Virus record (IMG/VR): IMGVR_UViG_3300027312_000135
Origin: a virus
Taxonomy: Duplodnaviria; Heunggongvirae; Uroviricota; Caudoviricetes
Direction: 5' to 3' (one strand)
DNA length: 12,244 nt
Shown here in pieces: positions 10,121 to 10,905 of the stretch (its first letter is position 1; each line of letters begins with the position of its first letter). Below the pieces are notes generated by a model. That model was given only the letters and a program-made list of their open reading frames with translations. It did no database searches and had not been told where the DNA came from. The position numbers and the translations under genes were made by a program.

Positions 10121-10246
10121 ATGAACATGCCGGTAATAGTTACGAAGTGGAGATGCAGCAGCCGGAAGCGGCTAAAGTTTTACCGTGATGGGTCGATGCA
10201 GTTACCGGAGGGTTACGATCCGATTTATCAGAAAGAGGGGGATTGA
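10121..10246 (+). CDS. Hypothetical small protein (41 aa), coupled to the downstream 219 aa gene
   Basis: Not in the track. ATG at 10121 (alternative 10127) with an AAGGAG SD; TGA stop overlaps the next ATG (TGATG). Translation MNMPVIVTKWRCSSRKRLKFYRDGSMQLPEGYDPIYQKEGD. Confidence 0.4.
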   Translation: MNMPVIVTKWRCSSRKRLKFYRDGSMQLPEGYDPIYQKEGD

Positions 10247-10905
10247 TGTTCGAGCTATTTGATAAGAGATATTCCCATAGGATATCAGAAGCTCTTAAAG
10301 AGAAAGTTCGCACTGACATAGATGGGCCAGGATTCATTGCTCGGGGGATTCTTGAGGCTATTCGCTTACTAGAAGGTGAAAACGTAGCGCAGTCCACAAG
10401 AGCGATGCGACATAAGGAGCGAGAACTAAAAGGGGAACTAGAAGGTTTTTTTCATATTCACGTTGCAGAAGACAATTTTAGTAGATTAATGAATAATTTT
10501 GGTGGGAAGCCCTCTAAACCAATAAAAAACCCCAGACCAGATGAATTGATTGCTTATGCCACAAATCAAGTCTTAAAAGCATATGTTAAAAAATTTAGCA
10601 TCCCTTATAGTAGTGATGACACTCAACATTTGAGGGATGCCATAATTAACAGCAGCCATGCGAAGAAGATTGGCGCTGATAATATTTTTGATTCAATTCA
10701 GAAGCAAATACCTATGATGATAGACAAGGTATTTTTTTCAAACAATAAAGTTAGTGGCGATTGGTTATTATATAAAAAACACAGCGATGGTAAAAACTAT
10801 TACCTTGATTTCACAGTACATGTAGAATCAGAAGATACGCAGCGCCAAATTGAACTTCGAGCGTCTTTGAATAAATCTTTCCAAGAACTTATCAAACAAC
10901 ATTAA
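10246..10905 (+). CDS. Hypothetical soluble protein (219 aa), no recognisable domain
   Basis: Track ORF trimmed to the ATG at 10246, with a GAGGGGG SD 5-6 nt upstream. AT-rich codon usage. No TM segments or catalytic motif recognised by eye. Followed by an intrinsic terminator. Confidence 0.7.
   Translation: MFELFDKRYSHRISEALKEKVRTDIDGPGFIARGILEAIRLLEGENVAQSTRAMRHKERELKGELEGFFHIHVAEDNFSRLMNNFGGKPSKPIKNPRPDELIAYATNQVLKAYVKKFSIPYSSDDTQHLRDAIINSSHAKKIGADNIFDSIQKQIPMMIDKVFFSNNKVSGDWLLYKKHSDGKNYYLDFTVHVESEDTQRQIELRASLNKSFQELIKQH

Follow-up and report, generated by a model that had tools for sequence, protein, structure and literature searches.

Phage-encoded nucleases with the fold of the RelE toxins have a described precedent in RegB of phage T4. 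RegB folds like RelE and YoeB, carries two candidate catalytic histidines, is transcribed with the early genes, and has no known antitoxin (PMC3014915). In YafQ, H63 is the candidate general base, H87 is the general acid, and D67 tunes H87 (PMC4652777). In the available part of a 2025 survey of the RelE/ParE toxins, the fused genes join the toxin to a recognisable antitoxin domain, in the order antitoxin-toxin or toxin-antitoxin, and many multidomain relatives are set aside for want of an identifiable antitoxin (PMC11980606). The subject here is a gene for a 219-amino-acid (aa) protein, together with a 41-aa open reading frame (ORF) that overlaps its start, in a 12,244-nucleotide (nt) stretch of Caudoviricetes DNA (IMG/VR record IMGVR_UViG_3300027312_000135, whole stretch termed “the window”). 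The 219-aa protein is read, with a probability of roughly 0.5, as a RelE/YafQ-type endoribonuclease that is solitary, bears an insertion, and travels as AT-rich cargo of lambdoid prophages. The 41-aa ORF is almost certainly part of a dead gene for a homologue of the theta subunit of DNA polymerase III, of the P1 Hot/HolE type (Pfam family PF06440).

The 219-aa ORF is a conserved gene. This is confirmed because its homologues are under purifying selection, with pairwise ratios of nonsynonymous to synonymous substitution (dN/dS) of 0.04–0.16 across five loci, synonymous divergence being mostly saturated. The guanine-cytosine content (GC) of the large gene is 0.36–0.37 in all five loci, whatever the backbone. 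By arithmetic from base composition, an open frame of 220 codons at 37% GC has a chance of about 2e-7 per start, and a length of 41 codons is unremarkable in a window with 122 ORFs of 30 aa or more. A first-pass annotation of the window had pointed to a contrast in composition, a Shine-Dalgarno sequence, a terminator, and a TGATG overlap between the two ORFs, and each of these is found. The 41-aa ORF has a GC of 0.49, the large gene 0.37, and the phage backbone 0.54–0.59. The 41-aa ORF runs from ATG 10121 to TGA 10244–10246 (another possible start, ATG 10067, would extend it to 59 aa), and its stop codon overlaps the large gene's ATG at 10246. The terminator hairpin and its seven T residues fold with −11.7 kcal/mol (z-score −3.4), and none of 200 shuffled sequences folds as well. 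The hairpin is conserved in the window and in loci L011 and L009; L003 has a hairpin that lacks the T-run.

Relatives of the 219-aa protein are few. A word-indexed search recovers only eight among 5.8 billion clusters, and an exhaustive profile search finds 15 clusters among 1.84 billion representatives. Seeding with members at middle distance adds relatives that carry no annotation beyond “hypothetical protein”, from E. coli, Citrobacter, Enterobacter, Raoultella, Mangrovibacter, and Serratia. A segment with theta and a homologue of the large gene is present in 6 of 5,426 complete E. coli genomes. Neither the window protein nor an E. coli homologue finds a relative among 50,697 phage records by tblastn, and a pattern scan of one genome per species finds none. 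Megablast of positions 8700–11200 against the phage records and E. coli genomes yielded nothing useful, nor did an Rfam scan of the whole window. The 219-aa gene is best read as a rare, selectively maintained, AT-rich cargo gene of lambdoid prophages with its own terminator. The proposal that an acquired AT-rich cargo gene had a small ORF of backbone-like composition grafted onto its start is upheld.

The predicted structure of the 219-aa protein has the order that defines the RelE/ParE fold, two α-helices followed by an antiparallel β-sheet of four to five strands. Very likely the protein adopts the RelE/ParE (BECR) toxin fold, modelled with a helical insertion in the β3-β4 hairpin and an extra C-terminal helix. 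The predicted model matches HigB best (6af3_A, score 9.6, with 95 of 114 residues aligned), then HigB1 (8.7), YoeB (7.8, at 20% identity), ParE1 (7.4), RelE (7.2), and YafQ (7.1). Among the 22 structure matches, the sole one of another kind is Cami1, at rank 20. Read against the known topology of YoeB, the predicted strand order would correspond to YoeB β2–β5, with residues 77–169 inserted. A Foldseek search against BFVD gave nothing useful.

The earlier statement that this protein has no recognisable domain holds for sequence profiles and fails for structure. No match is found in Pfam, PADLOC, or NCBIfam, and PHROGs give one weak match (E-value 0.0057) to a family of unknown function. A search of PDB sequences with family profiles returned nothing relevant. 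When the insertion is deleted in silico, YafQ_toxin (PF15738) becomes the top Pfam match in 8 of 10 members, with E-values from 6.5e-4 to 0.14. The family motif LKGxLxGFxHxHV ... GDWLIYKK ... NYYLD..H resembles the YafQ motif LQGSWKGYRDAHVEPDWILIYK...TGTH, and hhalign, at low probability, places KERELKGELEGFFHIHVAED/GDWLLYKK on YafQ KDHPLQGSWKGYRDAHVE/PDWILIYK. By its predicted fold, the protein would belong to the RelE/ParE superfamily but lie outside every defined sequence family; it is filed here as RelE/YafQ-like.

Conservation is concentrated in the core. Across 17 family sequences, down to about 21% identity, no change is seen at S14, L42, E43, L65, H70, H72, W173, Y186, and H192, and very little at R12, L17, G171, and L187. 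These were compared with the residues of the RNase branch, namely H50/H63, D67, and H87 of YafQ and E46, R65, and H83 of YoeB. In the low-probability hhalign alignments, H72 falls on YafQ H63 and D172 on YafQ D67, and in the same register W173 falls on YafQ W68. By our own reading of motif and strand order, H192 may correspond to YafQ H87. The insertion ranges from 57 to 104 aa across the family and is among its least conserved parts. Distant members share a fraction of only 0.08 of residues with the window protein in the insertion and 0.11 in the C-terminal helix, against 0.24–0.47 in the core.

The 41-aa ORF had been proposed as a leader or regulator of the large gene; it is instead a scrambled 3′ part of the theta gene. 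Its only family match is PHROG 1105, “DNA polymerase III theta subunit” (E-value 2.7e-5, positions 50–79 of 79). The intact 84-aa theta of L011, which is 65% identical to P1 Hot and above the NCBIfam theta cutoff, matches the 41-aa ORF at 42% identity by tblastn (E-value 2e-9 with the window as sole target and 2e-8 with all loci). Three-frame translation upstream of 10246 gives theta segments SREIHDDKVYVGMPQ in frame 2, NDVNSKELMNMPVIV in frame 0, YEVEMQQPEAAKV in frame 2, and RKRLKFYRDGSMQLPEGYDPIYQKEGD followed by the stop in frame 0, with DKV.V, KELMNMPVI, EVEMQQPE, and R.RL.FYR...P.G.DP.YQK recognisable. DNA alignment with the theta genes of L003 and L011, at 78–81% identity over aligned columns, places two 2-nt deletions and one 25-nt deletion in the window copy, a loss of 29 nt in all. 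The remnant has a GC of 0.47, compared with 0.56 for the intact gene.

An intact theta frame, of about 76–84 codons and three helices, is not found in the window, where stops precede codon ~12. The window cannot encode a full-length theta: the segments alternate between frames, and 29 nt are deleted. The 41-aa ORF lacks the first helix of theta, and nine internal theta codons are missing from it. Gene callers run on identical contigs disagree over it, giving 41 aa, 59 aa, or no call. The AAGGAG upstream of it consists of the codons for the conserved Lys-Glu of theta's KERMNMPVI motif. Its phage-like composition arises because it is backbone (theta) sequence. Truncation of theta by insertion of the neighbouring low-GC island was considered and rejected, as the remnant spans nearly the whole gene, the lesions are internal insertions or deletions, and the island ends at the theta start. 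The 41-aa ORF as an antitoxin was likewise rejected, being a frameshifted theta remnant.

Table 1. Features of the window. Subdivisions of the 219-aa gene follow its predicted structure.
Feature	Position	Strand	Remarks
lambda-P, O, ParB helix-turn-helix (HTH) protein, cII, cro-like gene		−	
cI-type repressor	4166–4909	+	
PDDEXK exonuclease	7078–7899	+	
RecT	7896–8798	+	
Divergent intergenic region, DUF6338 gene (−) to theta remnant	9944–10039		GC 0.26; right edge of low-GC island
Theta pseudogene (P1 Hot/HolE-like), almost certain	~10040–10246	+	207 nt, against 255 nt intact; theta pieces in frames 2/0/2/0
41-aa ORF, probable chance-open frame in the pseudogene	10121–10246	+	theta residues ~35–40 (MNMPVI), 8 out-of-frame codons, last ~27 theta codons (RKRLKFYRDGSMQLPEGYDPIYQKEGD and stop)
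Shine-Dalgarno-like GAGGGGG of 219-aa gene	10235–10241	+	4 nt upstream of ATG; embedded in theta 3′ end (..YQKEGD and stop)
219-aa ORF	10246–10905	+	
Codons 1–76, predicted N-terminal half of core	10246–10473	+	helices 15–25, 30–42; short strand 59–60; strand 69–73
Codons 77–169, predicted helical insertion in β3-β4 hairpin	10474–10752	+	helices 77–84, 98–116, 126–140, 144–164
Codons 170–195, predicted C-terminal half of core	10753–10830	+	strands 172–178, 184–190; motif GDWLLYKK..NYYLD..H
Codons 196–219 and stop, predicted extra C-terminal helix (198–217)	10831–10905	+	poorly conserved
Intrinsic terminator	10920–10944	+	hairpin 10920–10937 with 7-base-pair GC-rich stem and 4-nt loop, then T7
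DksA/TraR-like C4 zinc-finger protein	10960–11178	+	PHROG 54, E-value 7e-11; directly after terminator
Dam methylase	11387–11959	+	

Genes of the RelB, DinJ, YefM, HigA, or ParD type are found beside no member of the family in about 12 contexts, and the neighbouring ORFs have no antitoxin match in Pfam. Within the polypeptide itself, no antitoxin family is matched at E-values up to 10 by any of 17 full-length members. The sole recurrent neighbour is theta, or just its 3′ end. Theta is intact, at 82–84 aa, in L011, where its stop overlaps the large-gene start in TGATG and the large gene is 76% identical to that of the window, and in E. coli prophages L076–78, where it overlaps the start in the nin region and the large protein is about 36% identical. 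Theta is frameshifted in the window, carries a stop codon and a frameshift in L003/4/5, and has an in-frame TAG in a near-full copy in L081, a Pantoea prophage with the same attachment site as the window. Theta is absent in L009, L084, and distant members. In the homologue neighbourhoods, a check suggested in the first-pass annotation, theta recurs upstream and is broken (L003, L081) or absent (L009, L084) beside an intact large gene.

The junction between the theta 3′ end and the start codon is common to the window, L003, L011, L076, and L081, and the N-terminal extension of P0042 is an out-of-frame reading of a theta 3′ end. In L081, positions 5467–6000 hold the TAG-broken theta, an unrelated 74-aa ORF whose GTG overlaps the theta stop, a second copy of the last ~23 theta codons, and then a 215-aa family member. 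The duplication of the theta 3′ end around the 74-aa gene suggests that cargo has been exchanged there by recombination. The theta 3′ end is read as both the ribosome-binding region of the large gene and a recombination joint for cargo exchange. A theta gene followed directly by a DksA-like gene, an “empty site”, was sought in HK639 and CobraSix without success. Other genes lie downstream of the Hot-like genes of P1, HK639, CobraSix, and ZF40. In L001, a Serratia sp. MYb239 prophage, a divergent theta-like gene of 81 aa lies two genes upstream, and a weak theta C-terminal-like fragment (10684–10737, 56% over 18 aa, E-value 0.03) lies just downstream of the family member. In L012 (3–1355), a UvrD-like helicase gene, cut by the contig end, lies 22 nt upstream of the distant member P0020 (190 aa). 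No other distant member gives even a hint of a defence-type neighbourhood.

As a RelE/YafQ-type nuclease, the 219-aa protein would be an endoribonuclease of the YafQ/YoeB/HigB kind that cuts ribosome-bound mRNA. H72 would serve as the general base and H192 as the general acid tuned by D172, with E43, H70, W173, and Y186 lining the face of the sheet. The chances that the protein is an active RNase are about even. As the large gene persists where no intact partner lies upstream, its protein is probably self-contained. The nuclease may be kept off, or may be targeted, by the variable insertion and/or the C-terminal helix until a signal arrives; such regulation in cis is a tentative proposal and rather doubtful. 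A single gene, borne as AT-rich cargo and ending in its own terminator, would then make up a conditional translation shut-off. The likeliest role is judged to be exclusion or abortive infection of competing phages, and a RegB-like lytic role is judged nearly as likely. Phage exclusion by such a shut-off agrees with the cargo features, with the rarity, and with the variable domain. A defence role is possible at most, and falls short of even odds, because theta is broken or absent beside an intact large gene and no PADLOC model matches. The earlier idea of a toxin-antitoxin-like pair survives in the toxin-like predicted fold of the 219-aa protein and is lost in its 41-aa partner, which is a theta relic and not an antitoxin.

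Several points weigh against this reading. Full-length members match none of the Pfam profiles of the RelE/ParE type (RelE, YoeB, YafQ, HigB, ParE, Gp49, and others), even at E-values up to 10. The YafQ_toxin scores of the spliced sequences, at 12.9–20.4 bits, are below the cutoff of 30, and the splice point was chosen by the analyst. The hhalign alignments behind the catalytic mapping have probabilities of 0.6–4.7%, and the model is predicted, not solved. D172 is conserved in most members and is E, H, or Q in distant ones, and equivalents of YafQ H50 and F91 are not evident. PADLOC, to which the first-pass annotation had looked for a defence match, gives none: PADLOC-DB v2 matches neither the window protein nor six homologues, a Cas10_Id hit at an E-value of 0.018 being chance-level. 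Cis-inhibition is pure inference. An intact theta overlaps the large-gene start in both E. coli and Pantoea, at 36% identity, and a real two-protein system is possible because of this recurrence. Expression in the lytic cycle rather than in the lysogen is argued because the gene has early-operon orientation and no consensus promoter.

A nuclease of the same fold could serve the lytic growth of its own phage. It would be a solitary endoribonuclease made from early (pL or nin) transcripts that inactivates host or early phage mRNAs and retunes translation, needing no antitoxin because the cell is already doomed. T4 RegB is the precedent, as an early antitoxin-less phage endoribonuclease (PMC3014915), and family members have the strand and operon position of early genes, lying early-left in the window, L003, L011, L081, and L084 and in the nin region in L001 and L076. 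Coupling of the large gene to a replication accessory gene, with no upstream sigma-70 consensus promoter and no conserved antitoxin, also agrees. However, the gene is rare and patchy in the E. coli genomes, phage records, and clusters counted above, and its AT-rich foreign composition and own terminator look like dispensable cargo rather than part of a core programme. This housekeeping role is considered unlikely. Very unlikely is a RelE/ParE fold that lacks RNase activity, either as a ParE-like poison of gyrase or of a replication protein or as a non-catalytic binder; in that case, its target might lie in replication, as the theta link would hint.

The remaining alternatives give the upstream sequence a function. 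The theta homologue and the RelE-like protein could form a two-protein module, toxin-antitoxin-like or a replication-linked switch, in which theta, translationally coupled upstream as canonical antitoxins are, neutralises or regulates the 219-aa protein. The window copy would be recently degenerate, or host HolE would stand in for the lost phage theta. A small upstream gene, an overlap of 1–4 nt, and a larger toxin-fold gene make the classical type II layout, with the intact theta of L011 and the E. coli prophages overlapping the start, the latter copies in the nin rather than the early-left region. Theta or its 3′ end is directly upstream in five lineages (window, L003, L011, L076, and L081), is also inferred for P0042, and has a counterpart in the theta-like gene two genes upstream in Serratia L001. 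A functional partnership is still conceivable, since the pairing is kept between deeply diverged members and occurs in two phage regions. It is nevertheless improbable: different lesions have inactivated theta in the window, L003, and L081, it is missing from L009, L084, and distant members, and the large gene is intact throughout; the Hot-like genes of P1, HK639, CobraSix, and ZF40 keep other company; and the theta 3′ ends on both sides of the unrelated 74-aa gene in L081 indicate a recombination joint, not a partnership. The literature searched gives no link between theta and a toxin. More improbable still is the specific form in which a theta-fold protein acts as antitoxin, sensor, or adaptor of a RelE-type nuclease in an unrecognised two-gene system. 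If true, that system would couple the state of the replisome (free versus epsilon-bound theta, of phage or host) to translation shut-off, and host HolE could explain why prophages tolerate the loss of their own theta copy. Finally, the 41-aa ORF could be a functional small protein, a truncated theta or a leader peptide that delivers ribosomes to the 219-aa start. Two gene callers annotate it, AAGGAG precedes its ATG at 10121/10127, its stop overlaps the next start in TGATG, and translational coupling could aid expression even if the peptide is meaningless. Yet eight of its codons are scrambled, the first helix and nine internal codons of theta are gone, its “Shine-Dalgarno sequence” is theta coding sequence, the open remnant in L003 differs (38 aa, from another start), and L009 and L084 are without such an ORF. 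This function is hardly credible.

The window comes from a lambdoid Pantoea prophage and covers its immunity, replication, and early-left region. A contig identical to it (L006) runs on into an integrase and then into Pantoea chromosomal genes, whose best relatives are in Pantoea at 93–94% identity. A low-GC island of minus-strand genes (8799–10039) lies between RecT and the theta remnant, with a GC of 0.36 against 0.54–0.59 for the backbone. The two ORFs on the plus strand are divergently transcribed, as the first-pass annotation had described, the opposing gene being the DUF6338 gene (9356–9943, minus strand), and the intergenic region holds no plus-strand match to the sigma-70 consensus promoter. 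The DUF6338 protein (195 aa, Pfam E-value 1.3e-34), hydrophobic in its N-terminal half, heads the minus-strand island. In L011, the slot after RecT is occupied by an unrelated 193-aa minus-strand gene. This slot looks like a cargo hotspot because the window and L011 hold these different genes there.

Three tandem minus-strand ORFs lie 3′ of the DUF6338 gene, at 8864–9022 (52 aa), 9034–9177 (47 aa), and 9192–9335 (47 aa), and are followed by a minus-strand terminator (8861–8838). They are paralogous, each with GYQP/GYKP motifs and a C-terminal KQVT(Q/P)P(A/V)PPPKKP before the stop; they have no match in Pfam, PHROG, or PADLOC, and Tandem Repeats Finder detects no DNA-level repeat. The gene in the cro position (3961–4236, minus strand) matches Pfam YdaS_toxin (E-value 3e-18), and the ParB-HTH protein (2672–3475, minus strand) has cII on one side and the O/P replication genes on the other. 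Each has the look of an ordinary lambdoid variant. Beyond the terminator of the large gene, L011 has a DksA/TraR-like homologue in the equivalent position, and the spacer TTTTTTTACGCCTAAATT..GGA is conserved. With this spacer and homologue kept in L011, conservation extends to the right-hand junction of the cargo. The DksA/TraR-like gene was rejected as a partner of the 219-aa gene, being conserved only in L011 and beyond the terminator.

To our knowledge, the role of theta copies in phages is not well understood. The pairing of theta with the large gene offers a testable handle on that role and on the coupling of theta to its neighbour. For annotation, the lesson is that short “coupled” ORFs beside cargo may be relics of backbone genes that now act as ribosome-binding regions and recombination joints. 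If the reading as a solitary nuclease is true, the RelE/ParE superfamily gains a core split by an internal, fast-evolving helical domain with no antitoxin gene, an architecture not found where fused and multidomain forms are tabulated in the available part of the 2025 survey (PMC11980606). It also raises the question of how a RelE-type nuclease is held harmless in cis and what releases it. A literature search on RelE insertion domains gave nothing useful.

Compared with the YafQ, YoeB, HigB, and RelE toxins, the 219-aa protein is twice the size, with its predicted helical insertion of 57–104 aa and extra C-terminal helix, and it falls below every Pfam threshold. Those toxins have RelB, DinJ, YefM, or HigA-type antitoxin neighbours, whereas the recurrent neighbour here is a homologue of the polymerase III theta subunit. 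In contrast to P1 Hot and E. coli HolE, the theta segments of the window are split over alternating frames, with 29 nt deleted. In the fused RelE/ParE toxins, as described by Gerdes in the available part of the 2025 survey, the added domain is a recognisable antitoxin; here the extra domain is predicted to be internal and matches no antitoxin family (PMC11980606). The locus resembles such fused and multidomain toxins, and the fused toxin-antitoxin defence protein CapRel, in that one prophage-borne polypeptide appears to combine a toxin fold with more variable, possibly regulatory sequence. The toxin of CapRel is a RelA/SpoT-type pyrophosphokinase and does not have the RelE fold. Like T4 RegB, the 219-aa protein is phage-encoded and solitary, with a RelE/YoeB-like predicted fold and candidate catalytic histidines. 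Measured against these systems, the locus does not represent a new kind of system, but its architecture is unannotated and has a testable link to phage theta genes.

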